Source of the DNA: a virus
Taxonomy: Duplodnaviria; Heunggongvirae; Uroviricota; Caudoviricetes
Virus record (IMG/VR): IMGVR_UViG_2778261161_000002
Strand: one strand, 5' to 3'
DNA: 64,000 nucleotides
Shown here: piece after piece, positions 1-14,800 of the stretch
How positions within the stretch are numbered: position 1 is the first letter of the stretch
How the letters are laid out: every line of letters begins with the position of its first letter
The notes under the pieces: model-generated
The model's database searches: none
Told to the model about the DNA's origin: nothing
What the model saw: the letters and a program-made list of their open reading frames with translations, nothing else
Made by a program: the position numbers and the translations under genes

Positions 1-451
1 TTTGCTGCCATGTTTCTTCTTGGTATTTAGGCCGACGCCCACCTATACGACCTTCTGCGCGAGCTGCATCAAGTCCAGCGCGTGTACGTTCAACGATAAG
101 CTCACGTTCCATTTCTGCCAGCGCCCCCATTACGTGAAAGAAAAAGCGCCCCATTGGTGTACTGGTGTCGATGGAGTCAGTGAGACTCCGGAAGTTAATG
201 CCTCTGTCACGCAGCTCTTCCACCAGCACAACTAAGTGACGCATGCTGCGCCCAAGACGATCTAACTTCCATACGACTAGGGTGTCACCTCTGGAAAGCA
301 TACGGAGAACCTTTTTTAACCCTGGGCGTTCAGCCTTTTTGCCGCTCGCCTTATCCTCAAAAATTAGCTCACATCCTGCGCTTTCAAGGGCGTTTCGTTG
401 TAAAGCGGTGTTTTGGTCATTAGTTGATACGCGAATGTATCCAATAAGCAT
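1..451 (-). CDS. Serine DNA invertase (Cin/Gin/Pin/Hin family), 3' end beyond window
   Basis: Reverse-strand translation from ATG at 451..449 gives MLIGYIRVSTNDQNTALQRNALESAGCELIFEDKASGKKAERPGLKKVLRMLSRGDTLVVWKLDRLGRSMRHLVVLVEELRDRGINFRSLTDSIDTSTPMGRFFFHVMGALAEMERELIVERTRAG, near-identical in pattern to Pin/Gin. Confidence 0.9.
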   Translation of the reverse strand, partial: MLIGYIRVSTNDQNTALQRNALESAGCELIFEDKASGKKAERPGLKKVLRMLSRGDTLVVWKLDRLGRSMRHLVVLVEELRDRGINFRSLTDSIDTSTPMGRFFFHVMGALAEMERELIVERTRAGLDAARAEGRIGGRRPKYQEETWQQ

Positions 452-556
452 ATGTCCCCCCTTGTATGTTAAGGGGGGAGATTTTAGAAGATGTCCTGTA
501 AGGAAATAACAAACTGACTAAGTTAGTGGCGCATTAGATGTTATTTCTGGAGGGGT

Positions 557-883
557 ATGTTTGCAGATTATGAAAATCTGGCTGTAGTAGTCATAACATC
601 CCTACTAAGTGGAACCGGCGTATTCCTTCTCGGAGTTAGAGACGGGCGCATTTCTGCGTCCCTGCTCAATCTTGCGAGTGAATTGTTTACTGCGGTAACA
701 GCCGGGCTTGCGGGGTATGGGGTGGCGGTTAGCCAAGAATGGCCTGAAGGTATCATTTTCTGCGTTGTTCTGATTGCCAGTAACAACGGTAGTGAAATTT
801 TACAGGGCTTGAAGTCCAGAGCTAGTAACGTCTTGAATCTCTTAAGCGTAATAGCGAATGGGGGAAAAGGTGGAGAGAAATAA
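557..883 (+). CDS. Putative holin (LydA-like by size and position), 108 aa, three hydrophobic segments
   Basis: ORF track; hydrophobic segments VVVITSLLSGTGVFLLGV, LFTAVTAGLAGYGVAV, IIFCVVLIASN; first gene of operon divergent from invertase. Confidence 0.4.
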   Translation: MFADYENLAVVVITSLLSGTGVFLLGVRDGRISASLLNLASELFTAVTAGLAGYGVAVSQEWPEGIIFCVVLIASNNGSEILQGLKSRASNVLNLLSVIANGGKGGEK

Positions 884-1329
884 TGGGTAACTTTGGAAAT
901 TATTTCATTTTTATCATGGCATTTGTTGCCATCATTGACCGTTTCATTTTTCGTCGCAAGAGTGTTGAGATTTTGAGTATTGGTGACGCTGTAGTGAAAG
1001 AATCCGCTATAGCATTTCCTGTTTCGCTACGTGTTAAGCGAAGCTGGGTCAGCAATGCTCAAATCGAATATTGGTTGCAAGACCTGAAAAATCCATCTGT
1101 GGTTATTTCAGGGAAAACGCGACCAGTTGACGCCTCAAAACGCGGTGAGAGAGAAGAGTATTTGCTCATCGATACGAAATATCTTGAGCCAACGAAGTGG
1201 GATCTGAAAGTCACATTGACTAACGGTAACTGCCGACTGAATCCGCTTTATCGCATTTTCCCTATCAATGACTGCATAGAGCGCCAGTTTACGATCGAAA
1301 AGCGTGAAGGAGACTGGGATGTCAAATAA
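883..1329 (+). CDS. Hypothetical protein (LydB-like position), 148 aa
   Basis: ORF track; start overlaps stop of upstream ORF (ATGA coupling). Confidence 0.35.
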   Translation: MGNFGNYFIFIMAFVAIIDRFIFRRKSVEILSIGDAVVKESAIAFPVSLRVKRSWVSNAQIEYWLQDLKNPSVVISGKTRPVDASKRGEREEYLLIDTKYLEPTKWDLKVTLTNGNCRLNPLYRIFPINDCIERQFTIEKREGDWDVK

Positions 1330-1939
1330 GAATAATTATGTTCTTCTTAATTATGCTGAATTAAACGAAAAGGGGCTGGCAAAACTCGTCAAAGAAATCA
1401 GCAAAGGTGGTTACAAGATAGCGAGGGTGATCCCTGCAAGTAATGGCAGGAAGAAAGATGGGATCATGACGCGCACGTTTACCCTTATTGGTATTGATGA
1501 ACAGACAATGGAAGTTCAGGTTAACGATACCGGCGATATATCTGGGATCAAACTGAATGGTAAAACAGTACCGTTCAAGCCAGTAAAAACAATGTCGGCT
1601 TTGGGGCAATCTCTTGCGGCTTTATTTAATCGCGGAGCAACTTCTTTCCAGAAGTCATTAGCTCGAAAACTTGCTCGTGCAGCAAAAAATATTGATGACG
1701 GAAATAAGAAGCGGCAGGGAGTTAAATCTAACGCTCAGAAATTAGCTGAAGCGAAAGAATCACGTGATGCACTCCGTGAAGATATCGCTAATGCTAACGA
1801 CAAACTGTCTAAACTCCAGAGCAAGTCAGACAAAGTAATGCAAGATACGGGTAACGTTAAAGCTGCCTTGTCTCAGGAAGTAGCTAAGACACGTGCTCTT
1901 AAAGAAGAAATCGCGCGTCTGGAGGATGAGCATGATTAA
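1319..1939 (+). CDS. Hypothetical coiled-coil protein of dar-like operon
   Basis: ORF track; start moved to ATG at 1319 preceded by AAGGAG; K/A/E-rich coiled-coil C-terminus. Confidence 0.5.
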   Translation: MSNKNNYVLLNYAELNEKGLAKLVKEISKGGYKIARVIPASNGRKKDGIMTRTFTLIGIDEQTMEVQVNDTGDISGIKLNGKTVPFKPVKTMSALGQSLAALFNRGATSFQKSLARKLARAAKNIDDGNKKRQGVKSNAQKLAEAKESRDALREDIANANDKLSKLQSKSDKVMQDTGNVKAALSQEVAKTRALKEEIARLEDEHD

Positions 1940-3875
1940 CAATCCTTTACGAATTAATATTCAGTCTACTTTTGCTGATACGATCCCCGGCTATATGCCA
2001 AGTCGCTGGTCTTCAGAAGAATTAAGCGAAGATGACCTGATTTTTGAGGCGGCGACCTTAGAAGATATTGAGCTTGCCTATATGGGCAATGAAATTCTGG
2101 TTGTGTCTGACGAAGCTATGTTTGAGTCCATAACTACAACCAGAATTCGGTTAGCTCAAACAATGCGAGCTTTCGTCCGTGCGCTGAATCGTGGCCTGAA
2201 TGGTACGAATATTATGGCAGGGACTGATGAAGCTGGGACCGATGAAAATGGACGTAATTGTATTGGTGGTGCGATTATCGGTCGTGTACGTCGGGTAGCT
2301 AATATCCCTGTTTTGACCGCGCAGATACCGCTTACTGACGGGCAGAGTACAAGCATAATTTTCCACTCTCCAACAGCTGACGGGGCAAAAATAAAGAGTA
2401 ACGACGAGCTTGTTGCATTTCAGTTTTTACTTAATAAGCGTAACGTAACTCACGTTGTCGCCCCGATTGGTGGGAGAGATGTTTCTTTAAGCCAGGTATG
2501 CCAGGCGCTATCTAATTTGATTGAGCGTAACAGCGAAAAATTTAAGAAAGCAAAAGAGCGCCAGGACAAAATGAAGGCAGATATTGAGAGTTATCTCAAT
2601 GAAGCAGATAAACTGGCAGAAGAACGGTCAATAATGATTGATCAGGTGGACGTTGCGCAACGTGGGCTGACTGAAAAGCGTGCTGCTCTTACGGAGATGC
2701 AAAAAAAACTTGATGCCCAGAAAGCTATCAATGAGGAATTACAAGCAAAACGCGATAAATTGTTGTCTGCTAAAGGTGAAAAAACGAAAGAACGAGCGTT
2801 TAGTGACCAGCTGCGACATGTAAAACATAATCTTGCCATTGACGGAAAAACAGTGCTTGATAATGGCGCTGAAGTTAATTATGTCACGTCCGGCAGTGAC
2901 AATTTCGTTACGATAGTAGCACCTGAAGGTAAATTCAGTATTGATGCCAGTGCTGTCAAAGGAGGCAGTTTGGCAGATGCTGCAACCAAATTACTTAAAG
3001 CCTACCGAGAGCATAACGCAGATAAATATAAAGTTGATGTGTTACCAGGCCAGTTGGAAGACTCCGAACCACCACAGACAGACCCCGAAACGAACCCAGT
3101 ATTACAACCAGAGAGCCAAGATGTAGGTGAATACCACTATGCACTTCAATCTCGCCCGGCTGGTGTTGGTGCTGTTCCGGATGGAAATAAAGCCGTGCTT
3201 GATCGTCCTGACCAGGCTGATCAGTATTACGAATATGCTCGTCACGGTATCATTACGTATGACCGTAAACTGACAGATGAAGAAGTCAGCCAGTACGAGT
3301 TGCTTTATCTTCCTGATGAAGATGAGCTGAAAGATTTTGCAGGCCAATTGGTTGCGTCCAGCATGTCGAAACATATTGATGGCTATGTGGACCTGTTTGG
3401 CAGTGACCTGAAAACATTCAAGGCGCAAGTGAAAATTCTTTTCCGCAAAGCGTTTCCAAACGTGGCGTATCCACTTAGTGATGGGGAGAACCTTTTCATT
3501 ATGGACGTGTATAACGCCCTTCAAAATCATTCAAGCGAAGTAAAAACAGAGCATGTGGTTGAGCCAGAATCACAACCACAACCACAACCACAACCACAAC
3601 CAGCACCAGAACAGGAGTCGGAGCCAGAAGAAGCGGGTGAATCAGCAAGTGAAGCTGATCAGGAAGCAGATAAAGCGCTGGAGTACCTGAAATCCGTGCC
3701 GGAGCAGTTTACATCCCGCGATCTGACGGTCATCAGTGCTGAACTTGATCATGTGCAGGAAGCAGCAAACGCTCTAATCAGTGCAGGTCGATACGACGAG
3801 AACGAAGCCACTGTGGGTGCAGCAGTTGACTACCTGATCAATATTCTGGCTGAAATTCAGCAGGGAGGTGTTTAA
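1932..3875 (+). CDS. Large acidic protein with (QP)n linker, DarA-like by size and synteny
   Basis: ORF track; GGAGG upstream of ATG 1932; internal ESQPQPQPQPQPAPEQESEPEE linker; about 650 aa. Confidence 0.4.
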   Translation: MINNPLRINIQSTFADTIPGYMPSRWSSEELSEDDLIFEAATLEDIELAYMGNEILVVSDEAMFESITTTRIRLAQTMRAFVRALNRGLNGTNIMAGTDEAGTDENGRNCIGGAIIGRVRRVANIPVLTAQIPLTDGQSTSIIFHSPTADGAKIKSNDELVAFQFLLNKRNVTHVVAPIGGRDVSLSQVCQALSNLIERNSEKFKKAKERQDKMKADIESYLNEADKLAEERSIMIDQVDVAQRGLTEKRAALTEMQKKLDAQKAINEELQAKRDKLLSAKGEKTKERAFSDQLRHVKHNLAIDGKTVLDNGAEVNYVTSGSDNFVTIVAPEGKFSIDASAVKGGSLADAATKLLKAYREHNADKYKVDVLPGQLEDSEPPQTDPETNPVLQPESQDVGEYHYALQSRPAGVGAVPDGNKAVLDRPDQADQYYEYARHGIITYDRKLTDEEVSQYELLYLPDEDELKDFAGQLVASSMSKHIDGYVDLFGSDLKTFKAQVKILFRKAFPNVAYPLSDGENLFIMDVYNALQNHSSEVKTEHVVEPESQPQPQPQPQPAPEQESEPEEAGESASEADQEADKALEYLKSVPEQFTSRDLTVISAELDHVQEAANALISAGRYDENEATVGAAVDYLINILAEIQQGGV

Positions 3876-4243
3876 TGACCATCTCTGTTTTAGACCGCCT
3901 GAAATTAGGTAAAGAGCTATCAGATCTAATGCAGGCGCAGAAAACTGCGCCAGTATTGCAACGCGTCACCATTGGTAAGCAGATTGTTGATGTGATGCTG
4001 AAATTGGGCCTGGGGACTGCCGCGCAACCGGCAGCGGAACCGCAACAACAGGCTGATCCTGTTGTAGATGAAGTCCCTAAGATAGTGACTGACTTCCTGG
4101 GCGGTGTGTTCACAAAGTCCACACAAATGGAATTTATTGATGCGCTGCGTGGGATCTCAAACTATGTTGGCGAGTTCCTTACGTTGGAGCAGGCTAAAGA
4201 GCAGACCATAAGCTGGGTGAAAGCTAACGGTTATGCCGGGTAA
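3875..4243 (+). CDS. Hypothetical protein, 122 aa (DdrA-like position)
   Basis: ORF track; ATGA overlap with upstream gene. Confidence 0.4.
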   Translation: MTISVLDRLKLGKELSDLMQAQKTAPVLQRVTIGKQIVDVMLKLGLGTAAQPAAEPQQQADPVVDEVPKIVTDFLGGVFTKSTQMEFIDALRGISNYVGEFLTLEQAKEQTISWVKANGYAG

Positions 4244-4249
4244 TCAAAA

Positions 4250-4268
4250 GGGGCTGAAATGCCCCTTT
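4250..4268 (+). terminator. Hairpin AGGGGC-tgaaat-GCCCCT after operon segment
   Basis: Inverted repeat read directly; weak T-run. Confidence 0.4.
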
Positions 4269-4325
4269 CACTTATCTGTTCTCACATAAATCACACACTT
4301 TTTACACTCACAGCTTTCTCTATAG

Positions 4326-5723
4326 TTGGAGTGTATTTTGAACAAATCAGTTACTTCTGCGCTTTCCGAGGCCGCAGATATTAACAGCGTCATTGCTCTG
4401 GTTTCTTCATTAGAGAGGAAAGAAACACACCTGGGGCGAAGTAGCTACGTAGTCACCAGCAAAGGTGCAGAGGTAAAGACGGCTTTTAAGGTCGTTGATG
4501 CCAGCAGTCTGATCATTTCGAACAACCTTGACGGTACGATTAACCCGGCCTTCCCGGAAGAACTCCAACCACGAGATCGTACCCGGCTATCCAGCAAACT
4601 CCAGGTTAACCGTATTGCCTCCAATTTACGCCCGGCACAATTAACGGATTCCGGTATGAGCAGCCACGGAGCGCCTATAGTTGGTCCGGACAACGTTGTT
4701 GAATCCGGCAACGGAAGGAGTATGGGTATCTGGCGTGCCTATGAGCAAGGACAGGCGGATGAGTATCGCCAGTACCTGATCGACCATGCGAAAGAGTTTG
4801 GTCTGAATCCTGACGAAATTTCGCAAATGTCTATGCCCGTACTGGTGCGAGAAAGACTCACAGATGTAGACCGCGCTCAATTTGCCCGCGATTCAAACAT
4901 TAGCGATCTGCAAGAGATGGCAGCAAGTGAAAAAGCGTATGCGGATGCGCAATTTCTCACTGAGAGCGTCATGGCGCTATTTAATCCTTCAGATGATGGA
5001 AATCTGCTGGCGCGGTCCAATGATGCGTTTATTCGTGCGTTTTTGCGCGAAATTGGCGATACAGCGACGGCAGGCTTGCTTACTGCCGATGGGCGTCCCA
5101 CGAAACAGCTTATCGATCGCATCCAGAATGCAATTTTTGCCAAAGCGTACAAGGATGAAAGGCTTGTTCGGCTGGTGTCGGAAGAGCCAGATCCGGAAAT
5201 GCGTAATATCCTGACCGCATTAAATACGGCAGCCAGCGATTTTGCGCAAATGCAGTCGCTGTCTGGCGACGCTCACCATGACGCAGTAACAGGCTTAGTG
5301 GACGGTATAGAGCAGGTTAATGGCCTGGATACACAGGCGATAGCAGCACTCCAGGAAGCAATTAATCTTGTACGTGAAGCCAAAGACAACGGTCAGGCCG
5401 TTGAAGAAGTGATCGCCCAAAGGGGGTTATTCGGCGACAGTACACCGGAAGCTGAGGCATTGGCGCTATTCATCGTAGCAAATAATCGCAGTGCGAAGCG
5501 TATGGGGGCAGCATTCAAAAAAATGGCGCAAAAAATCAACGACGAGCTGACTCATAAACAACAGGCATTGGGCGATATGTTCGGCGGTGGCGATGTTGAT
5601 CTGCGTCGTATTTTGTCTGCTGTATCTGATGAAATTGAGGGTGAATTTGGCGAAGGGAAAGGTCTGAACTTTGCTATGTTTGAAAATTCTACGGATCTAA
5701 ATAATTGCCGTACGGAAAACTAA
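4326..5723 (+). CDS. ParB/sulfiredoxin-like nuclease-domain protein, 465 aa
   Basis: N-terminal region ELQPRDRTRLSSKLQVNRIASNLRPAQL ... VVESGNGRSMGIWRAY resembles ParB N-terminal domain; non-ATG (TTG) start implied by ORF track. Confidence 0.45.
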   Translation: MECILNKSVTSALSEAADINSVIALVSSLERKETHLGRSSYVVTSKGAEVKTAFKVVDASSLIISNNLDGTINPAFPEELQPRDRTRLSSKLQVNRIASNLRPAQLTDSGMSSHGAPIVGPDNVVESGNGRSMGIWRAYEQGQADEYRQYLIDHAKEFGLNPDEISQMSMPVLVRERLTDVDRAQFARDSNISDLQEMAASEKAYADAQFLTESVMALFNPSDDGNLLARSNDAFIRAFLREIGDTATAGLLTADGRPTKQLIDRIQNAIFAKAYKDERLVRLVSEEPDPEMRNILTALNTAASDFAQMQSLSGDAHHDAVTGLVDGIEQVNGLDTQAIAALQEAINLVREAKDNGQAVEEVIAQRGLFGDSTPEAEALALFIVANNRSAKRMGAAFKKMAQKINDELTHKQQALGDMFGGGDVDLRRILSAVSDEIEGEFGEGKGLNFAMFENSTDLNNCRTEN

Positions 5724-5787
5724 ACCAACCGCTGAAATCACATACTGATTATGCTGCCGCAAAACTGGAAACGATTTGCGGTGATTC

Positions 5788-7470
5788 ATGGCAACGAAAG
5801 ACAAAAACAAAGGCTTTCTGTCAGCATTGAAGAAAGCCTTCAACGGTGGTGATGTTACGCCCGCCGATCCGGTCGTTTTTACGAGCGGACATAGTGTCGT
5901 TGCTCGTTCCGGCCTGTCTGCTTTACGTCCAGGCATCCTGGGGAGCAATAGCGATGGCATGACGAGTGAGGCAGATTCAATTTCTTTATCCGCTGAACTG
6001 CCCGGCGAGCGCCTGCAAAAGTACAACATCCTGGAAACGATGGCTAAAAGCCCGACTATCTCGACGGCTTTAAACATTCACATTGCACATGCGCTTGCGC
6101 CTTCAAAAAAAACCGGACAGGCATTCATCCTTTCGCCAAAGGATGGTTCCGATGCCGAGGCAGTAAGTAGATGTGAAGAGTTAACCGCTGATTTGGGGGC
6201 GATGATTAATGACGGACTTCCTTCATGGGCCATGATCATGGCGATCTTTGGGGTGTCTTATGTCCGACCTTATGCTGAACAGGGCAGGGGGATAACAGGC
6301 ATTGAGTCCAGTTATTACACTCTGCCACATTTCGTCCAGGAATTTTATCGCGGTAGCCAGCTGGTTGGATTCAGTGGTGATTACATCCTGGATACGCATA
6401 GTTTGCGCAGAGTAATAACCGAACCGTGGAATCTGGTTTCCATGAAAAATCCCTATTGGACGCCACAGCATAAAGTTATTCCGGTTAGCTACGGCACAAA
6501 AGGGTACTCACTGTTAAGTGAGCAGGCTGATAAGCCGTTAATGGAGACGCAGAATTACGGAACTTCATTCCTGGAATACAGCTATGAACCTTACCTTAAT
6601 TTATGTGCTTCGCTCGCCGCGCTGAAATCAACGCGAAATAATGCAGCCAAAATTGACCGCCTGATTGCTCTTACGACGAACACACTGGACCCGGTTAATG
6701 CGGCGAACTATACGCGTGGCGTCAGCCAGGCATTGAAGCGTCATAGTGACCTGGTGGCGCAAAGGTCGATTAATGCCAACGCTATTCCGACTGTGCTTAA
6801 CCATCTGATACCTGTTATGGGAGACGGGAAGAACGGCATCACCATTGATACGCAATCCATACCCGCAGATATCAGTGGTATCGAAGACGTTATGTTTCAC
6901 CTCCGGCAGCTTGCTGCAAGCCTCGGCATTGACGCAACAATGCTTGGCTGGGCTGATCAGATGAGCGGAGGGCTTGGAGAAGGCGGCTGGCAGCAAACTG
7001 CTATCCAGGCTGCATTGCGTGCGAACTGGATCAGACAGGCCGCCCAGCGAACTATTTATCGGCTTCTGGACATTCACCTCGCTTATAAATACGGCAAGGT
7101 TTACACCGAAACAAACCGCCCTTATGACGTGCAATTCAACTCAATGAACACTGCTATCCAGGAAGAGGAAAACCGGGAACTGGATGCACGCGCCAACTTT
7201 GTTGCTGTCATCTCCCAAATTATGGACCAGATCCAGAACAACCCGAAACTGGCTGGTAGTGACGCGTTTATGCGTTATCTGTTCACTGAGCAGTTGCACA
7301 TCGACGATGACACTCTCAACACCATGATCAAAGAGTTTAAGGCGAATGAATCAGAGCAAAACAACGAGCATGGTATGTACGAATCCGCGCCGTTGTCGTC
7401 CGGTGACGATCCGGAAAACTGGACGCCAGAACAGTTAATAAACTTTGCAAAATTTGTGATGAGCAATTAA
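5788..7470 (+). CDS. Hypothetical large protein, 560 aa (possible virion/morphogenesis-associated)
   Basis: ORF track; no motif I can name with certainty. Confidence 0.45.
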   Translation: MATKDKNKGFLSALKKAFNGGDVTPADPVVFTSGHSVVARSGLSALRPGILGSNSDGMTSEADSISLSAELPGERLQKYNILETMAKSPTISTALNIHIAHALAPSKKTGQAFILSPKDGSDAEAVSRCEELTADLGAMINDGLPSWAMIMAIFGVSYVRPYAEQGRGITGIESSYYTLPHFVQEFYRGSQLVGFSGDYILDTHSLRRVITEPWNLVSMKNPYWTPQHKVIPVSYGTKGYSLLSEQADKPLMETQNYGTSFLEYSYEPYLNLCASLAALKSTRNNAAKIDRLIALTTNTLDPVNAANYTRGVSQALKRHSDLVAQRSINANAIPTVLNHLIPVMGDGKNGITIDTQSIPADISGIEDVMFHLRQLAASLGIDATMLGWADQMSGGLGEGGWQQTAIQAALRANWIRQAAQRTIYRLLDIHLAYKYGKVYTETNRPYDVQFNSMNTAIQEEENRELDARANFVAVISQIMDQIQNNPKLAGSDAFMRYLFTEQLHIDDDTLNTMIKEFKANESEQNNEHGMYESAPLSSGDDPENWTPEQLINFAKFVMSN

Positions 7471-7483
7471 CCGGAGGGAAATA

Positions 7484-8482
7484 ATGCAATCACTGAATAC
7501 TGTTACGGATCGCTTCTCCCTGGTAGAGAAAATCCGCAAACACACACCGCAGAACAACCGAAATTATGTCATTCAGTCGGTACGAGACACATTCAACTCG
7601 CCAGAAACAAAAGAGCGTATCGCGCTGGGTGAGATGTATGGTTATTACGGTCATGGTCGCCGGGCGATGCACTATAACAAAACGAAAAGCCTGAACTTGC
7701 CGGAAGTCTCTGTTGTGATGGTAGATGGGAAGCCTGTTGTATTGGAGAACGTGCCGTCAAACAGGACTATCGACATTTCGATTGACGACAACGGCATTGT
7801 TACGCATACGCAGGAAATACTGGATACAGACACCGGGCGTATTGTTCAGGGCATGATTAATTCTGGTGCTGGTGGTTGGTCGTGGGCTACATCTGGTCCA
7901 GATTCATCGGTATCCCTGGTAAAGTCTTTCCACGGCTTTGATTACGTAACTGTGCCTAACTATATCAGCCTCGACAAGAAAAGCCTGATGCTTGAATCAG
8001 CAGAAGAGCGCGATGCGGCTATTCATGCAGCACTTATCGAACAAGGTTTTACCGATAACGCTGCTACGGATCTGGTTCACCACTTTTCAGCAATGAAAAA
8101 TCAGCAAGCCATGCTCGAATCTGCACATCGTGAAGCCCTGGAATCAGAATTGATGCTCCTTGAAGTGGAAAACATACAGCTTCGAGATAAGCTGCGCGCT
8201 CAAACAGCGATGATGGAAAGCCAGGGGGAAAATGCAAAGCAATGCCGCCGGATTTTGCGTGACGCTATCCAGGAAATGCCTGTTTTTATCAGCGCAGAAC
8301 AGCGCCGGGCGCTCTGCCGTATGCAGTCTGAAGATGATGCCCGCATAGTGGCTGCGATGCTTGAATCTCTTGGGGCAAATGCTACTTATGGCTTACCGGT
8401 ATCAGGCAAGAAAGAACCAGAGTTATCACCGAAGGAGAACAAAAACACCACCCCGTTACTCTTCGTTTCTAGAAGGGGGTAA
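7484..8482 (+). CDS. Hypothetical protein, 332 aa
   Basis: ORF track; RBS GGAGGG upstream; coiled-coil C-terminal half. Confidence 0.45.
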   Translation: MQSLNTVTDRFSLVEKIRKHTPQNNRNYVIQSVRDTFNSPETKERIALGEMYGYYGHGRRAMHYNKTKSLNLPEVSVVMVDGKPVVLENVPSNRTIDISIDDNGIVTHTQEILDTDTGRIVQGMINSGAGGWSWATSGPDSSVSLVKSFHGFDYVTVPNYISLDKKSLMLESAEERDAAIHAALIEQGFTDNAATDLVHHFSAMKNQQAMLESAHREALESELMLLEVENIQLRDKLRAQTAMMESQGENAKQCRRILRDAIQEMPVFISAEQRRALCRMQSEDDARIVAAMLESLGANATYGLPVSGKKEPELSPKENKNTTPLLFVSRRG

Positions 8483-8500
8483 TCGCCTTGTTAAGTTAAA

Positions 8501-8509
8501 TTTCTAACA
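8501..8509 (+). promoter_or_regulatory. Operator-like motif TTTCTAACA (copy 1)
   Basis: aaaTTTCTAACAtagtg upstream of ORF 8683. Confidence 0.5.
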
Positions 8510-8599
8510 TAGTGTATTTATATACACTGTTGATCCTGGTGGATGGGATCGAGTAGGATCGCGGTCACTGCTCCGGTAGCGACTGCCAAAAAAGCAAAA

Positions 8600-8620
8600 G
8601 CCGCTGAGAAGCGGCTTTTT
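8600..8620 (+). terminator. Rho-independent terminator GCCGC-tgagaa-GCGGC + T5
   Basis: Hairpin plus T-run read directly. Confidence 0.7.
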
Positions 8621-8682
8621 GGGTGTATAAATCCACTGCCATAGATTTATACGGTAGATAGATTTTTTCACGGAACTATCTG

Positions 8683-9645
8683 GTGAGTATTTTAAATTCA
8701 GTTTCAGTAACTTTCAACACTTCTGAGTATAAAAACAACACTGAATACCACAAAAAAATCAAAGGTCATCAGTTGAGTTTTTTTGCTCGTCATAGCGGTC
8801 TTCTTTCCCCTTCACATAGCGCCATTATTGCCGAGTTCGCCAACCTGGCAGGGTCTACCGATGAATACATGATCCGTCGCTCATATGCTGATATGTCCGA
8901 GATTACAGGACGCAGCATTTCTACTGTGCGCCGGGCATTTGCTGAAGCGACGAAGTGCGGAATGCTTGTTAAGCAACATCAGGTAGCGAATAACAATGCC
9001 CAGGTGTGTAACGTATATCGGTTTACGACACAATTTCTCCACTTCATTCATGTAGCAATGGAGATAGGGGGTAAGCAGGGCATCAAATTTGCCAACGCCA
9101 CAAAGCTGGTTAAGCAATTGATTTCAAAGGTACGTTATTTTTTTGAAACTGGGAACCCCCTGTTCAAATTGAACAAGTCCCCCCATGTTCAAAATGAACA
9201 GCCAATAGAAAATAAGAGTCACTCTATAGCCAAAAGAAGAGAAAGATCATGCGCGGTTCAGCCAAAGGCTTCACCAGCAGATAGTACTCAAGCGGATAAT
9301 GGGGGACTGGATAAAAAAACAGTAATCAGGGAAGAACATACCAACCACTGCCTGGCGGCGGCAAAAGCGAGAGCTGCAAAGCGTCGTTCAGACGAGGGGC
9401 ACGCAAAACGGCAGGCTCTGTATCGTACCGCTGAAAAGCTGGCAAAAAAATTTGCATGGATACGTAGTGCCGCTACCGCAGTGAATAAGCCTAAACAATC
9501 CAGTGCCCTGGATTTCTCAATGGATTATTCTGGCTCCCAGGGGTGTGTAACCATTGGTGAAGCCTTTGACCTGATGAAACAACGTGGCTATCGGTCTGAA
9601 TTTGACCGGGAGGATTGGTCAATCCCTGCGGGATTTAGGGGATGA
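8683..9645 (+). CDS. HTH DNA-binding protein, possible replication initiator (RepL-like position)
   Basis: HTH-like segment MSEITGRSISTVRRAFAEATKCGMLVKQ; operator-like motif upstream; palindromic repeats inside ORF. Confidence 0.35.
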   Translation: MSILNSVSVTFNTSEYKNNTEYHKKIKGHQLSFFARHSGLLSPSHSAIIAEFANLAGSTDEYMIRRSYADMSEITGRSISTVRRAFAEATKCGMLVKQHQVANNNAQVCNVYRFTTQFLHFIHVAMEIGGKQGIKFANATKLVKQLISKVRYFFETGNPLFKLNKSPHVQNEQPIENKSHSIAKRRERSCAVQPKASPADSTQADNGGLDKKTVIREEHTNHCLAAAKARAAKRRSDEGHAKRQALYRTAEKLAKKFAWIRSAATAVNKPKQSSALDFSMDYSGSQGCVTIGEAFDLMKQRGYRSEFDREDWSIPAGFRG

Positions 9646-9699
9646 CCTGTGTGTCTACAAAGCATCCCAATGATCGGAAAATGCTCGCTCGATGATTTG

Positions 9700-9708
9700 T
9701 GTTAGAAA
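9700..9708 (-). promoter_or_regulatory. Operator-like motif (copy 2, reverse orientation)
   Basis: ttgTGTTAGAAAAtt upstream of first immI-like module. Confidence 0.5.
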
Positions 9709-9929
9709 ATTAATTTGCTGTTTCTAAATCGGAATGTATGATCTGCATCATCGACTGAAGTCATCCATTGCTGAAATTTTTAGTTGATCTTCCATGTTTT
9801 CAGGCTTATATTCATGCCGTCGTAGCAAATTCTGCGACCAGGTTTGACAGCCTGAATGTTAGTGCGGACAACCGCAGATTTCCGATATTGCGGTATTTTT
9901 GTGTCCGTAAACCGCGTTACGCCCGAATT

Positions 9930-10030
9930 ATGGTGGGGCGTGATGGGGAGGCTTCGGCCTGCTGGTCTCACTAACGCCAGTCTGTCAACCCTGTCACGTC
10001 CTGCCACCTGTTTGACAGCGGGTAGCAGGT
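9930..10030 (+). ncRNA. Candidate c4-like antisense RNA region of immI module 1
   Basis: Direct repeats GTTTGACAGC at 9842 and 10010 flank a complementary CTGTCAAC at 9982, upstream of icd-like ORF; architecture as in P1 c4. Confidence 0.3.
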
Positions 10031-10058
10031 TGTTAAACCTGTTAGTGAGGCCGTAACT

Positions 10059-10283
10059 ATGGTTAATGCCAATCCTTGCTCACGTCCAGAATTCATCTGG
10101 CGTTTCCACTCCCTGCAAAAACACTGCGATCACTTCGCAATTGCCGCAACCGAAAAAGAAGCCCGTTCTCTGATCCCTGATCAGCATGGTGTTCTTACTG
10201 GTCGTTTCTCTACTTCCCCACAACCAAACACTAATCCCTGGTATCGCAATATTACCAATCCCGGCATTGCGGAGGCACACTGA
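10059..10283 (+). CDS. icd: Icd-like cell-division inhibitor, 74 aa
   Basis: Small ORF with EFIWRFHSLQKHCDHFAIAATEKEARS immediately upstream of and overlapping ant-like gene; paralog at 50053. Confidence 0.55.
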   Translation: MVNANPCSRPEFIWRFHSLQKHCDHFAIAATEKEARSLIPDQHGVLTGRFSTSPQPNTNPWYRNITNPGIAEAH

Positions 10284-10990
10284 TGGATATCTGCATTCTT
10301 GAAAAGCCATCAATGACCAGCATTGAGATCGCGGAGCTGGTGGGAAAACGTCATGACAATGTGAAGCGTACCATTGAAACATTAGCCGAATCCGGCGTTA
10401 TTGTTCGTCCTCAAATTGAGGATGAACCAAAAATAGATGTAATGGGGCGTTCTCGATTAATTCAGGTGTTCCGATTTAGCGACGAGCAAGGCAAACGAGA
10501 CAGTATCATTGTAGTCGCACAGCTTTGTCCTGAGTTTACTGCCCGGCTGGTGGACCGCTGGCGCGAACTGGAAGAACAAGTACGCCAGCCGTTGACCGAA
10601 ATAGAGATGATCGCCGCAATGGCTGCAAATGCAGTTCAGCAGCAAAAGCGGCTTCATGCTGTTGAGTCAAAGGTTAGCCAGGTCGCTGAAACCGTCGAGC
10701 AAATCAAGAAGGGCAATATGCCAGATGGTTACATTGGCTACCGCCAGCTGGCGGCGAAATGCGGCCTGACTGAAGCCAAATGTCGCAACCTTGTCAACGC
10801 TTACCGGATTCCCACCGATACACATGAGTTTTTAACTCCAGAGGGGGTATTGTCGCGTCGTTCCATCGTGGCCTTATCTCCCTTCATGAATGCTTTTAAC
10901 CGGATGATGTCGGAGGCTGAACACCGAGGAAAACGCTGGTATCACCCCAAAATGGGGCAATTCCAGGTGATCGGTTGGGGAGGTGAGTGA
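10283..10990 (+). CDS. ant: Antirepressor-like protein (Ant-like), 235 aa
   Basis: ATGA-coupled to icd-like ORF; shares conserved blocks GKRDSIIVVAQL.PEFTARLVDRWRELE and MP.GYIGYRQLAAKCGLTEAKCRNLVNAYRIPTDTHEFLTP with ORF 50268. Confidence 0.55.
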   Translation: MDICILEKPSMTSIEIAELVGKRHDNVKRTIETLAESGVIVRPQIEDEPKIDVMGRSRLIQVFRFSDEQGKRDSIIVVAQLCPEFTARLVDRWRELEEQVRQPLTEIEMIAAMAANAVQQQKRLHAVESKVSQVAETVEQIKKGNMPDGYIGYRQLAAKCGLTEAKCRNLVNAYRIPTDTHEFLTPEGVLSRRSIVALSPFMNAFNRMMSEAEHRGKRWYHPKMGQFQVIGWGGE

Positions 10991-11187
10991 TGGACATCAT
11001 GCAGGCGGTAAAAAAAATCAGGGAAGGACAGGCTGAAGTGTGCCGCCGTAAAGCATGGAGTGTTGGTGTATGGGCCTGGCCTGATAATTACTCTACTACC
11101 GGATGGTTTTGTATTAATGGACTCCAGATCCGGGAAGTTGATTTATCGACGGCTGATATAGTCGGTAATGATTGGATCGTGACTTGA
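10987..11187 (+). CDS. Small hypothetical protein, 66 aa
   Basis: ORF track; ATGA overlap with ant-like. Confidence 0.3.
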   Translation: MMDIMQAVKKIREGQAEVCRRKAWSVGVWAWPDNYSTTGWFCINGLQIREVDLSTADIVGNDWIVT

Positions 11188-11196
11188 AGCGTGATG

Positions 11197-11220
11197 CCCC
11201 GGCCTGGCCGGGGCTTTTTT
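11197..11220. terminator. Bidirectional terminator CCCCGGCC-tg-GCCGGGG + T6
   Basis: Hairpin and T-run between convergent genes. Confidence 0.75.
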
Positions 11221-11705
11221 CATGCCTCATTAGTTGAGGTTGCTGCGTCTCCGACTGGTAACAGAGCGGTATTGTGTGGTTCGCCAGCAGGCCAGCGATA
11301 GCCAGACACTCTTGATGTTGGGAATGCGCGAATATTAACCGCATCCCCCTGGTTCCCACCCAAGACAAGCAGATCGCCATTGGCGCGGCGTCCGACAACG
11401 AAGCCTACGTGCCCACCGCCTACGCGGGTAAATACAACGATACATCCGTATGCCGGTGTATCTAATTTCTCGCCCCAATCCAGATAGGATTTTGCCGACT
11501 CAAATCTTGTTGAGCGGATGCCTACACGTTCCAGCATTGCACCGACAAATGCTGCGCACCACGGCGTTTCATCGTCTTTAATTCCGCCGCGCTTGATGTC
11601 GCGCCAGAACTGAACGATTTCAGGGTTGTGTTTAGCGCCTTTTATTTCAGTCAGGCCAATGTGCTTACGGGCTTCAATTAGCCAGCGAGGTTCAATGTTT
11701 GCCAT
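11220..11705 (-). CDS. CHAP/NlpC-P60-like peptidase (TIGR02594-type phage protein), 161 aa
   Basis: Motif PWCAAFVGAML and downstream HVGFVVG typical of Cys-His amidase. Confidence 0.55.
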   Translation of the reverse strand: MANIEPRWLIEARKHIGLTEIKGAKHNPEIVQFWRDIKRGGIKDDETPWCAAFVGAMLERVGIRSTRFESAKSYLDWGEKLDTPAYGCIVVFTRVGGGHVGFVVGRRANGDLLVLGGNQGDAVNIRAFPTSRVSGYRWPAGEPHNTALLPVGDAATSTNEA

Positions 11706-11856
11706 ATTTTTCTCCCGGTCATGGGTTAATAAGTAGGCAAACTATGGGGAGTATGTGATTTTGACGGTAGTATCGTCCCCCTGAAAATAACATTCTCCAT
11801 ACCCTCTCAACCGTACCGCATAGCGGAATTTTTTACGGTTTAGAGGGGGAAATCCT

Positions 11857-14800
11857 TTGGACAAACTACTTCATTCAATCAGTGAAGCCTCCAGCTTAGG
11901 CGAACTGATTGAAATTGTTAGTCGGTTGCATAAATTACGTGCTGTTGCGACCTTTGGCGTCAGGAAAGCCGATGGCGTCAGTATTCAGAAAACACGCCGG
12001 GCAGCAAACAATGCCGCAGTAAATCTTCTTAATTCCCTTCCGCCCGGCTTCGATGGGGCGAAATTAACTGACGAACAACGTCAGATTCTTGCTGGGTATA
12101 CCGGTGAAGGCGGCCTGACAGATGGTGAGGGCAGCCAATACGAATACTACACGCCACAGTTTATGGCTGAAGGTATATGGGATCTGTTTGCTGACTACGG
12201 TATTGATGGCGGGCACGTACTGGAACCATCAGCGGGCACAGGTATTTTCCAGGAGACAAAACGGCAGGGCATGATAATGACCAGCGCCGAACTGTCTCCG
12301 ATTTCTGGTCGAATAAACCAGCTTTTGCACCCGGAAGACGATGTGAATATCGGGGCGTTTGAGGCGCTGGCGGCGAAAGATGCAATGTATGACCACGCTG
12401 TTGGTAACGTACCGTTTGGTGAAGGGCGTTCCGGCGTTGCCGGGCTTGATCCGGCATATGCAAACGAGAAGAACGTTGGCAATTACTTTGTGCTGCGCAC
12501 GATCGACAAGGTTAAGCCTGGTGGGCTTATCGTATTGGTGGTGCCAAATGGCATGACCGATGGTACGAAATATAAAAAATTGCGCGATAAAGTCAGCCGT
12601 AAAGCGGAATTTTTGGGCGCGCATCGTATGCCTTCCGGTACGTTCAGTGAATCAGGTACAGATACCGTGGTGGACGTATGGGTATTGCGTAAACACCCGG
12701 AAGCCTTCCTGGAGATGATCCCCGATACGGATGATTCGACGCTCAAATCGGCAAACGTCCTTTGGGATACCTTCCTCAAAGGAAAATGGTTTACAACCGA
12801 AGGGAAGCGATTTGTTTACGGCGACATGGAACGTACCAGCTTCCGCAATACCCTGGTGGTGAAAAAAGACGGTCGTGTATCCAATGAGTCGATGAAAACC
12901 GCGCTATCTCGTCGCTTTGATAGTCGCATCAATTGGGATTTGCTCGGCGTAACTACTCAGGCATGGCAGGGCGCGAAAGTGGGCGATAAACGCCTTGTAG
13001 GCGGTATCTGGCATGAGTTTGATGGTCTGAAATGGGTTAAGGACACGACAACCAAATCCTCCGCGCTTGATGTAAGTCGATATGGTGTTTCGACGTTTGG
13101 CGATCTGCAGATCGCGTTCCAGTCAACAAACGGGATTCTGGCTTTGTCATGGGACCAGATATCGGCGATCGCGTCCGACTATCCATCGGTTGTCAGTGAT
13201 GAAGTGGCAGCAATGATTCGCTTTGCTGGCAAGCAGCGAGAAAAAGACAGGGAGCGCGTTATGCGCGGTGCACTGATAGGTCAGTTGATCAACAAGGCAC
13301 TTGATTTGCGTAACCTGGGGGTGAACGTTGATGACAAACTGGCAGATGCATCCCGCCTGGCGGCAGCAGAAGTTGCGAAGTATGGACCACCGCACGCGAT
13401 TAAGCTGAATGGGCTTGCTGAAGCTGGCGCTAAAAACTGGATGACGTTCACTGGCAATGTGAAACAGGATGGTTCCACTTCTGACCTTCTGGCAGGGCGA
13501 CTTGATGTAACGGATGGTGCTGCCGGTATTGACTTTACGCGTCCTGAACAAGTGATAGCACATCTTTTTAGTGATGTAGCCCTTAATCCTATAACGCTGG
13601 GCGACTTTCGTGAGGCGTTTGCTGGTGAACTGCCAGAGGACGACGACGCGGCCCTTGAATACCTGGCGAAATTTGATGATATCGCTATTGATGGGTATGG
13701 CTGTCTGCTGCCGATGGACCGCGCCACCAGCGGCGATGTTGCAACCAAAACAGCACTGCTGGTGGGTTGGCGTGATGCGTCAACAGGTGAGCAGAAAGCG
13801 AACTTTGAGCGTCAGTTGGCGAAAATCGAAGAGAAACGCATTTTCACGCCACTAAATAAAGTCACCGTTAATCTGAACGCCCGCTGGCTGGATCGCCGCT
13901 TGATAAAAGAGTTCCTGGCAGAGCAGGGCTATGACGAGTTTAAGTACACTGAACCTGATCTGAAGGTCGTCGATGGCATTCTGGTATCTCCGGACGATTA
14001 CGAAGGTAAGGACGGGGTATTTACCGGCTATCAGCTACGAACCGTAAACGGCAAAAACGGGAATGAGTTCAAGAAGGCCAACAATAAAGACGGCTTCCTG
14101 AACCAGTTAGAAAACTACCTGAACGGTGTTAAACCGCGTGGGCAGAACGCTAACGAGTACCTGGATAAAATTGCTCAACTGGAAGTTAGCTTTAACGACT
14201 GGTTACGCACTCACCCGCAGGCTGATCAGATAGCCCGCGAGTATAACGACGCATTCAATGGTTTCATTCCGTTCACGCATTCTGACGCACCGCTTGGCCT
14301 GGAAGGGATTAGTGGAAAGCGCATTCCTCTGACTTATCAGAATGAAGAAGTTCGGCGCTTGTCAGAAGATGGGCGCGGCATCATGGGATTTGGTACCGGG
14401 CTGGGTAAAACCACGACCGCGCTTGCGCTTGAGGCGTATAACTTCGAAACAGGTCGCACTAAACGCACGTGTATTGTTGTTCCGAAGGCGGTTTATCAGA
14501 ACTGGTATCACGAGGCACAGAGTTTCTACAGTGCTGATGCCTTCGCCAATATGATGTTTATCGGTTTGGATGAAGTTCGTGATGACAGCGGAAATATTCT
14601 GACCGCGCCGGTGCTTGATGAAAATGGCGAACCACGCCTCGACAGTAACGGGCAGCCTCTTACCAGAAATGTTGTGAAAGAGTCCGCCAGCGCCGTTATC
14701 GTTCAGCGCATGAACATGATCCCGTCGTCAAATTGGCGAACGGTCATCATGACAAAAGAACAATTCGCGTCTATCCCGCTACGAGAAAAAACCATCGAGG

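Follow-up and report, generated by a model that had tools for sequence, protein, structure and literature searches.

A probable late gene block of a phage-D6-like plasmid prophage carries an in-frame (QP)n microsatellite in darA and a short ddrB

We analyzed positions 557–8482 of a 64,000-nucleotide (nt) stretch of caudoviral DNA (IMG/VR record IMGVR_UViG_2778261161_000002), the whole of which is called the window in this paper. Judged from its sequence, this region is very probably a late block serving lysis, anti-restriction, and head assembly in a plasmid prophage that resembles phage D6 and belongs to the family of phage P1. One gene of the block, darA, which encodes an antirestriction internal head protein, contains a hexanucleotide microsatellite that is translated into a glutamine–proline (QP) repeat. 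This (QP)n tract is live and always in frame, and alleles of 1 to 12 copies are in circulation. The block itself is already known, being annotated in the records of phage D6, and as such adds nothing new. The new details are modest, and consist of the allelic series of the microsatellite, the X-Pro (XP) linker architecture of DarA, a candidate promoter motif, and a hotspot at the junction of the ddrB and prt genes.

An in-frame microsatellite in darA

Tandem Repeats Finder located a (CAACCA)5 array at positions 3571–3602 on the + strand (period 6, 5.3 copies, 100% matches, score 64), and this was the only tandem array scoring ≥ 40 in the window. A perfect tract of 32 nt with a period of 6 fixes 26 bases, and approximately 3e-11 chance occurrences are expected in 64 kb when both strands are considered. 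In the frame of darA, the array reads S-QP-QP-QP-QP-QP-AP and encodes (QP)5 at DarA residues 547–557. The first-pass annotation of the window had described a fivefold hexanucleotide repeat encoding alternating proline and glutamine in a DarA-like open reading frame (ORF), and had predicted that in-frame expansion or contraction would vary the length of a linker. The repeat is present and in frame, and the predicted variation was found among the relatives.

These relatives were drawn from viral, plasmid, and Escherichia coli genome collections, and the QP copy number was read directly from the sequence in 23 viral contigs and six plasmids. Nine alleles were seen, all of which keep the darA frame: one copy (loci L020 and L021), two copies (L007–L009 and L026), three copies (L031), four copies (L004–L006, L014, and L025), five copies (the window and L032), six copies (L027), seven copies (L028), eight copies (L029), and 12 copies (L030, the Salmonella plasmid pYU39_89). 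At the site of the repeat, the DarA of phage D6 instead has a non-repetitive linker (…SHPQTAPEQQPTPE…). In E. coli, Salmonella, and Shigella, 113 plasmids carried near-identical copies of the 3′ region of darA, and such copies were also found in 85 of 5,426 complete E. coli genomes, plasmid-borne in every case. A scan of genome contigs for DarA relatives gave no confirmed locus. Among the 40 plasmid matches listed of the 113, the length classes were all multiples of 6 nt apart. Moreover, the alleles with four, five, and six copies showed no flank mismatches over 526 nt, and those with 7, 8, and 12 copies belong to a single haplotype. Such a combination of identical flanks and length steps of 6 nt is what recent replication slippage leaves behind.

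Some sequencing chemistries are prone to errors in short tandem repeats, and the differences in repeat number might on that account be artefacts of sequencing or assembly. We give this explanation almost no credence, because every difference is an exact multiple of 6 nt that preserves the frame, and because the same alleles are found again in complete plasmid sequences that were assembled independently, from various laboratories, hosts, and countries. Among the matches listed, the five-copy allele occurred in at least seven plasmids and the four-copy length class in at least 11. In addition, a read is much longer than the 32-nt tract.

Because the unit is 6 nt long, slippage alters the length of the linker and the frame is never lost, i.e., the result is length variation rather than phase variation. 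Copy-number polymorphism on otherwise identical sequence, which is one property of a phase-variable contingency locus, was found here. The other property, an ON/OFF shift of the reading frame or of promoter spacing, was absent, as all nine alleles are in frame. The changes in length appear to be mostly tolerated, as would be expected if the tract were not a switch but a flexible spacer with near-neutral polymorphism.

Alternatively, the (QP)n tract might be an adaptive contingency locus, in which the linker, by changing its length rapidly and heritably, tunes the distance that the C-terminal bundle of DarA spans from its anchor on the capsid, and thereby alters the recruitment or ejection of the Dar cargo, the evasion of restriction, or the ratio of small to large heads. 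Such a role would fit the occurrence of nine alleles among close relatives, several of them on identical flanks, and the purity of the repeat up to 12 units, where a Ser-to-Pro change (TCA to CCA) extends the tract in the 7–12-copy haplotype. It would also fit the control that P1 DarA exerts over the incorporation of the other Dar proteins and over head size, and the presence of XP linkers of widely differing length throughout the family. Nevertheless, we consider an adaptive role unlikely: a 6-nt unit allows no ON/OFF switching; the linker is similar in length but non-repetitive in D6 and in many relatives, so neither a repeat nor a specific length is needed; and the segment is predicted to be disordered, a kind of spacer that usually tolerates changes in length.

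A full-text literature search for DarA together with P1-like and tandem repeat returned nothing relevant, and a paper on D6-like plasmids in Salmonella ST213 mentions neither darA nor repeats.

Architecture of DarA and its linkers

The structure of DarA was modeled with AlphaFold2 from a 51-sequence alignment. The model has a 95-residue helix at residues 186–281, and DarA combines a DarA_N domain, a long helix, and a DarA_C domain; this layout agrees with the P1 structure 9ukm determined by cryo-electron microscopy (cryo-EM). Four segments were predicted with low confidence: residues 1–72, 166–187, 374–396 (linker 1), and 539–572 (linker 2). Linker 2 (3546–3647, + strand), with a predicted local distance difference test score (pLDDT) of < 50, is a predicted disordered segment rich in proline, glutamine, and glutamate, which runs from the middle domain to a C-terminal three-helix bundle (helices at 574–592, 598–617, and 621–644, pLDDT about 80–86). 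The (QP)5 tract lies in this second of the two XP linkers of DarA, which is predicted to be a disordered tether joining the bundle to the main body of the protein. A Foldseek search of the model against the PDB returned only P1 DarA, and nothing informative was obtained for the C-terminal bundle.

Two linkers of X-Pro dipeptides, very variable in length, occur at the same two positions across 120 DarA homologues from many enterobacterial genera. In the homologues P0006–P0102 (Pantoea, Serratia, Klebsiella, Citrobacter, and others), which range from 620 to 927 amino acids (aa), the linkers consist of EP, QP, AP, or TP units, are 12–59 residues long, and are found at approximately 370–420 and 540–690. 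As XP linkers are family-wide, the (QP)5 tract of the window can be seen as a local, still-slipping instance of a bead-and-tether design. Linker 2 is the part of darA that diverges most from D6, with 80.5% identity at 3402–3588.

In the cryo-EM structure of the P1 head, Hdf is the partner of DarA on the inner capsid surface, and DarA residues 70–382 are anchored with Hdf at the penton–hexon junction (PMC12810830). Residues 383–639 were flexible and not resolved in that structure; residues 1–69 were invisible in the density, and the authors propose that they are removed by Pro (PMC12810830). The unresolved C-terminal part of DarA would then correspond to two XP linkers and folded modules, and the microsatellite in one of the linkers would provide a natural allelic series for testing the role of the C-terminal bundle.

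Identity of the gene block

A six-frame ORF list gave eight co-directional genes on the + strand within 557–8482, and their start codons were refined from the D6 annotation, the PGAP annotation, and ribosome-binding sites. Named by homology to their P1 counterparts, these genes are lydA (557–883, 108 aa, holin), lydB (883–1329, 148 aa, holin antagonist), hdf (1319–1939, 206 aa, with a DarA_N domain and a C-terminal coiled coil), darA (1932–3875, 647 aa), ddrA (3875–4243, 122 aa), a short ddrB (4338–5723, 461 aa, with a DdrB-ParB domain and a helical region), prt (5788–7470, 560 aa, portal protein), and pro (7484–8482, 332 aa, prohead or head-processing protease). For three of the genes, the ORF is longer than the refined gene. 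The hdf ORF (1304–1939) gives 211 aa from a GTG and 206 aa from the ATG at 1319, which is the D6 start; the darA ORF (1893–3875) gives 660 aa from a GTG and 647 aa from the ATG at 1932, which is the start in both D6 and PGAP; and the ddrB ORF (4326–5723) gives 465 aa from its first TTG and 461 aa from the TTG at 4338, which has a GGAG 6 nt upstream.

On the opposite side, the 5′ part of the cin DNA invertase gene lies on the − strand (1–451), where the start of the window cuts it; it has 97% nucleotide identity to P1 cin and is labeled in D6 as “DNA invertase, similar to P1 gene cin.” The order lydA-lydB-hdf-darA-ddrA-ddrB, divergent from cin, is that of the P1 Dar operon. A strong inverted repeat, CCCCCCTTG-TATGT-TAAGGGGGG, was noticed at 455–478 in the cin–lydA intergenic region, just upstream of the cin start. 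In the plasmid L032 (NZ_CP027309.1), whose darA 3′ region is identical to that of the window, an IS1203 transposase gene (7773–8986) stands upstream of lydA in the expected place of cin, and hdf is annotated as two overlapping coding sequences (9969–10590), owing to either a frameshift or a sequencing error.

All eight proteins are homologous to P1 proteins, with BLASTP identities of 43% for LydA, 34% for LydB, 39% for Hdf, 39% for DarA, 33% for DdrA (over 118 aa), 64% for DdrB, 50% for Prt, and 44% for Pro, and all eight match PHROGs. LydA matches the holin family phrog_1527 (E = 8e-39) and is 100% identical to D6 LydA; its score against the Pfam LydA holin model is 18 bits, under the cutoff of 28.4. 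LydB, which is encoded directly after this small LydA-family membrane protein, scores 87.4 bits against Pfam PF16084 (LydB; cutoff 28), and the two form a LydA/LydB holin–antiholin pair. Hdf matches PF18788 (DarA_N) above the cutoff, with E = 2.8e-17, and the Hdf-like phrog_1620 with E = 7e-76. DarA scores 1132.7 bits against the NCBIfam equivalog NF052326 (anti_RE_DarA, “antirestriction phage head protein DarA”; cutoff 350) and exceeds the cutoffs of both PF18788 (DarA_N) and PF18789 (DarA_C); it matches P1 DarA in the PDB (9ukm_I) with E = 2.8e-120 and is 94% identical to D6 DarA. DdrA matches the DdrA-like phrog_1855 (E = 4.8e-50) and no Pfam or NCBIfam model. Prt matches the portal family phrog_1497 (E = 8e-230) and, with 22.0 bits, falls just under the cutoff of 22.9 for the Pfam Portal_T4 model.

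Pro has no Pfam match and is annotated as “head processing protease” in the GenBank record of D6. RefSeq and PHROG 1801 label the same protein (7484–8482; NC_050154 gp106; NC_005856 P1_gp013) as “tail fiber protein.” This label looks like a propagated misannotation, since both the GenBank record of D6 and the P1 literature describe a head-processing (prohead) protease.

The first-pass annotation had proposed a lyd/dar-like block divergent from an invertase, with P1-like order and product sizes. The results of the profile searches and BLASTP, which show Lyd and Dar homology throughout, agree with this proposal, and the ORF list with refined starts gives the sizes of 108, 148, 206, 647, and 122 aa for the first five products. 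It had also placed a ParB-like protein after ddrA, and this protein does carry the ddrB-ParB domain PF18763 (E = 2.6e-42, 144 bits, cutoff 27.6), its sole Pfam match. The accompanying doubt that the genes farther downstream correspond to P1 ddrB was mistaken for the 465-aa ParB-like protein, which aligns with residues 2–442 of the 995-residue P1 DdrB, and was sound for the 560- and 332-aa proteins, which are not Dar proteins but Prt and Pro.

Escherichia phage D6, itself a plasmid prophage similar to P1, has 96.7% nucleotide identity to window positions 1–12,000 over the full length, and the D6 records label the genes of the block as “similar to P1” lydA, lydB, hdf, darA, ddrA, ddrB, prt, and pro. 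Downstream of the block, the region at 9799–10170, just after repL (8683–9645), is 93% identical to the immunity-I region c4/icd of P1, which comprises the antisense RNA C4 and icd. A 2,278-aa ORF at 11857–18693 (+ strand) is labeled in D6 as “similar to P1 darB” and matches SNF2-type helicases.

By homology to P1, LydA would act as a holin and LydB as its antagonist. Hdf and DarA would pair through their long helices and bind the inner capsid surface, with Prt as the portal and Pro as the prohead protease that removes approximately 70 N-terminal residues of DarA. DarA, Hdf, DdrA, and DdrB would be packaged and ejected with the DNA, which they would protect in cis from type I restriction. This sequence of packaging, ejection, and cis protection has been described for the Dar proteins of P1 (PMC12810830, PMC9024508, PMC12707154), in which DarA also controls the incorporation of the other Dar proteins and the size of the head (PMC12810830, PMC9024508). 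The Dar system is a classic case in which proteins packaged by a phage guard the entering DNA against type I restriction. Phage-plasmids of the D6 type are common, occurring in E. coli and also in Salmonella and Shigella.

The short DdrB and the ddrB–prt junction

DdrB is the gene product of the block that is best conserved relative to P1. The protein of the window is the N-terminal 45% of P1 DdrB without the C-terminal metallopeptidase half: it stops at residue 461, and the zincin-like HExxH peptidase of P1 DdrB is missing. The homology ends at …GLNFAMFE, after which the window protein continues for only 9–12 residues of an unrelated tail, NSTDLNNCRTEN. Residues 441–995 of P1 DdrB, i.e., the peptidase half, had no tblastn match anywhere in the window. 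In contrast, a full-length DdrB of 1,013 aa is encoded in four D6-like viral contigs (L010, L011, L015, and L019). The protein of L010 aligns end to end with P1 DdrB at 44% identity, and the motif HEIGH/HELGH is conserved, with HEIGH at residue 890 in L010. Because the long form is kept in some relatives and is shared with P1, it is ancestral and the short form derived.

One explanation of the short form is that it is a decaying remnant, left when the 3′ half of ddrB was deleted together with the downstream genes, as the closeness of the stop to the limit of homology, the unrelated tail, and the full-length genes of the relatives and of P1 might suggest. We regard this as very improbable. The ratio of nonsynonymous to synonymous substitution rates (dN/dS) of ddrB was 0.04–0.08 against relatives; for the short form it was 0.047 and 0.056 against other short forms, at synonymous divergences (dS) of 0.5–1.2, and 0.038 against a long form. 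The frame is intact and preceded by a GGAG ribosome-binding site, the GNGR motif of the ParB/Srx pocket is retained, and the short form is the majority state (approximately 17 of the 23 loci sampled). Furthermore, the same …MFE residue is the point after which at least four different tails begin, as would be expected of a module boundary and not of random decay. The short ddrB is, on these substitution ratios, under strong purifying selection and not decaying. The filler of approximately 50 nt that follows the truncation point had no match in any other junction variant, and a simple deletion from the long form is therefore not demonstrated.

As the element is a plasmid prophage of low copy number and the protein contains a ParB/Srx-superfamily domain, this protein could be supposed to be the centromere-binding ParB of the plasmid partition system, placed beside the dar genes by chance. 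The likelihood of this is negligible in our view, because the Pfam match is to ddrB-ParB and not to a partition-type ParB domain, the identity to P1 DdrB, a virion protein (PMC9024508), is 64%, and the gene belongs to a late block behind a late-promoter-like motif. In P1, the partition ParB is a different gene located elsewhere in the genome. A partition ParB would have a partition-type domain with a helix-turn-helix and would adjoin parA and parS, whereas the gene in the window has no parA neighbor and stands in a late structural context.

The borders of the ddrB–prt junction are fixed, on the left immediately after the …MFE of DdrB and on the right at the promoter-like motif of prt. Between these borders, the contents vary sharply among relatives, in which the junction is a cargo hotspot. 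It is empty in the window (junction at 5697–5755) and in most loci, with a 64-nt spacer between ddrB and prt. In D6 (L001, 8694–9846), it holds two genes, orf24, which has a weak, sub-threshold match to DUF4145, and orf23. It contains a HicA/HicB toxin–antitoxin pair in L023 (4599–5614), and the peptidase half of DdrB with three small genes in the L010 group (L010, 6053–8823). In L022 (6183–9933), ddrB itself is replaced by other genes, including an IS605-type TnpB. No tblastn match to D6 orf23, D6 orf24, or P1 LydC was found in the 64-kb window. The block is also mosaic relative to D6. The segments at 3402–4182 (the 3′ end of darA and ddrA) and 5184–5723 (the 3′ end of ddrB) have 80–88% and 77–89% identity, respectively, and the rest has 98–100%. 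Patches of low identity in an otherwise nearly identical block indicate recombination with other D6-like lineages.

The tract and the junction could also be read together, with (QP)n as a selected, fast-mutating “ruler” within DarA and the boundary of the short DdrB as a dedicated cargo-insertion hotspot in the late structural operon. We hold this combination to be improbable. If the ruler existed, each QP unit would add approximately 6 Å (an estimate for a polyproline-II-like conformation), giving a range of approximately 70 Å from 1 to 12 copies, and the reach of the C-terminal bundle, and hence the loading of Dar cargo, the evasion of restriction, or the head-size ratio, would change.

Late-promoter-like motifs and hairpins

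Three copies of a late-promoter-like motif on the + strand precede genes of the block. The first, AAATAACAAACT-GAC-TAAGTT (504–524), is 35 nt upstream of the lydA ATG, in the position of the P1 promoter LPdar. The second, AAATCACACACT-TTT-TACACT (4288–4308), is 30 nt upstream of the ddrB start. The third, AAATCACATACT-GAT-TATGCT (5735–5755), is 33 nt upstream of prt, in the position of P1 LPpro, and forms the right border of the ddrB–prt junction. The consensus is AAATMACAHACT-N3-YANNNT, located 30–35 nt upstream of the start codons of lydA, ddrB, and prt. The 12-mer AAATMACANACT occurred eight times in the window compared with an expected 2.3, and none of 100 shuffled sequences reached eight. 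Seven of the eight occurrences were upstream of late-type genes in the correct orientation (positions 504, 4288, 5735, 11761 on the − strand, 11785, 53101, and 57793); those outside the block precede a lysozyme-like gene, the darB homologue, a gene for a tail protein, and one gene whose function is unknown. Within the block, all three sites were conserved in every D6-like locus covering them, even where dS of the flanking genes was > 1.

The window also encodes a late transcription activator similar to Lpa of P1 (26055–26423, + strand; phrog_1704, E = 3e-58). Its identity to P1 Lpa is only 31%, as would fit divergence of the recognition box. We infer that AAATMACAHACT-N3-YANNNT is a candidate for the motif that, in the D6 lineage, corresponds to the Lpa-dependent late promoter of P1. 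Transcription would probably start at the three motif copies before lydA, ddrB, and prt, and the apparent operon may then comprise three late units, i.e., lydA–ddrA, ddrB, and prt–pro. A D6-type late-promoter consensus, if correct, could help work on P1-like phages.

Several other candidates for promoters were rejected. The canonical P1 late promoter consists of a 9-bp −22 box (AAGTGACTW), a 4-nt spacer, and a −10 element (TANNNT), and a weight matrix was built from eight annotated P1 late promoters. Its scores were at most 1.7 bits upstream of lydA and at most 5.1 bits upstream of prt, compared with 13–21 bits for the P1 sites, and no credible match was found before lydA, ddrB, or prt. A simple pattern derived from three P1 late-promoter sites was not enriched (16 matches compared with 12.3 expected), nor was the palindrome ACTAAGTTAGTG upstream of lydA. 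A sigma-70 promoter scan gave six matches, compared with 12.7 in shuffled sequences, and none of the six preceded a gene of the block on the + strand.

Two hairpins accompany the block. Directly after the ddrA stop codon, a G+C-rich hairpin, AAAGGGGC-TGAAAT-GCCCCTTT (4247–4268, + strand), was predicted by ViennaRNA folding and is conserved in D6-like loci; it is a possible terminator or attenuator, and a simple terminator scan did not call it. A palindromic hairpin resembling an intrinsic terminator, AAAAGCCGC-N4-GCGGCTTTT (8596–8619), was found by both the terminator scan (10 pairs) and folding, and closes the block.

Two observations were made on the surroundings of the distant genes mentioned above. 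The lysozyme-like gene (11220–11705, − strand; phrog_1259/endolysin matches) is divergent from the darB homologue (+ strand), with a promoter-like motif for each in their 150-nt spacer. The Lpa-like gene is directly followed by a homologue of the terminase protein PacA, as in P1.

Points weighing against this interpretation

The interpretation given above has to be set against several considerations. All roles assigned to the proteins of the block are transferred from P1 at 33–64% identity. The near-neutrality of the (QP)n tract is something that we infer, and the persistence of a pure tract of up to 12 units could reflect selection. The AlphaFold2 model of DarA is mediocre overall (mean pLDDT 67; predicted template modeling score 0.29). 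P1 DdrB has been reported to be processed to approximately 76 kDa before packaging (PMC5512222); the 51-kDa short DdrB without the peptidase may behave differently or may stay unpackaged. Finally, the sites in the window are not recognized by the weight matrix of P1 late promoters (≤ 5 bits compared with 13–21 bits for P1 sites), and the late-promoter call thus rests on position, enrichment, and conservation.

Comparison with known systems

The block is a member of the Dar–Lyd late gene set of P1 and D6; the peptidase half of P1 DdrB and the canonical P1 late-promoter box are missing in the window. Phage D6 (NC_050154/MF356679; orf30–orf21) has the same arrangement, with cin divergent from lydA, lydB, hdf, darA, ddrA, and ddrB, and with prt and pro following. 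Its proteins are 93–100% identical to those of the window, its DdrB is equally short, and the same three promoter-like motifs are present. D6 differs in its non-repetitive DarA linker and in the interval from ddrB to prt, which holds the two extra genes (1.1 kb) instead of the 64-nt spacer of the window. In P1, the darA operon has the same order and the same orientation relative to cin, all six proteins from LydA to DdrB are homologous at 33–64% identity, and DarB has a putative counterpart in the window, at 11857–18693. On the other hand, P1 DdrB is 995 aa long and ends in the HExxH peptidase, and P1 has lydC upstream of lydA, which the window does not contain. The prt–pro pair of P1 lies beside darB at a distance of approximately 5 kb from the dar operon, with which it is convergent, whereas in the window it directly follows ddrB. 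The late-promoter box also differs, AAGTGACTW-N4-TANNNT in P1 compared with AAATMACAH…-YANNNT in the window.

The window DdrB has an N-terminal domain like that of the DdrB-like ParB domain proteins (Iyer et al., 2017; PMC5512222; PF18763), and its late-gene context beside virion structural genes is the one described there for both solo and polyvalent forms. The window form is a solo form, without the metallopeptidase that was proposed in that study to autoprocess P1 DdrB. Natural forms of DdrB with and without the peptidase half therefore offer a ready comparison for the proposed autoprocessing role.

The DarA linker resembles other proline-rich spacers in composition. A weak match to Pfam PF05887, the procyclin-type (EP)n family, was obtained at residues 552–594 of the 660-aa darA ORF, and the same match occurs in many DarA homologues. 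The two share an alternating X-Pro composition, a predicted non-globular state, and a length that varies among homologues; this is a compositional resemblance only, with no evidence of homology. The (EP)n/(KP)n region of TonB is likewise a proline-rich XP spacer between domains, and its resemblance to the DarA linker is also one of composition.

The simple-sequence contingency loci of Neisseria, Haemophilus, and some phages share with the (QP)n tract a perfect, short coding repeat whose copy number is polymorphic among near-identical relatives. Unlike those loci, the tract in darA has a unit that is a multiple of three, and only the length of the protein changes.

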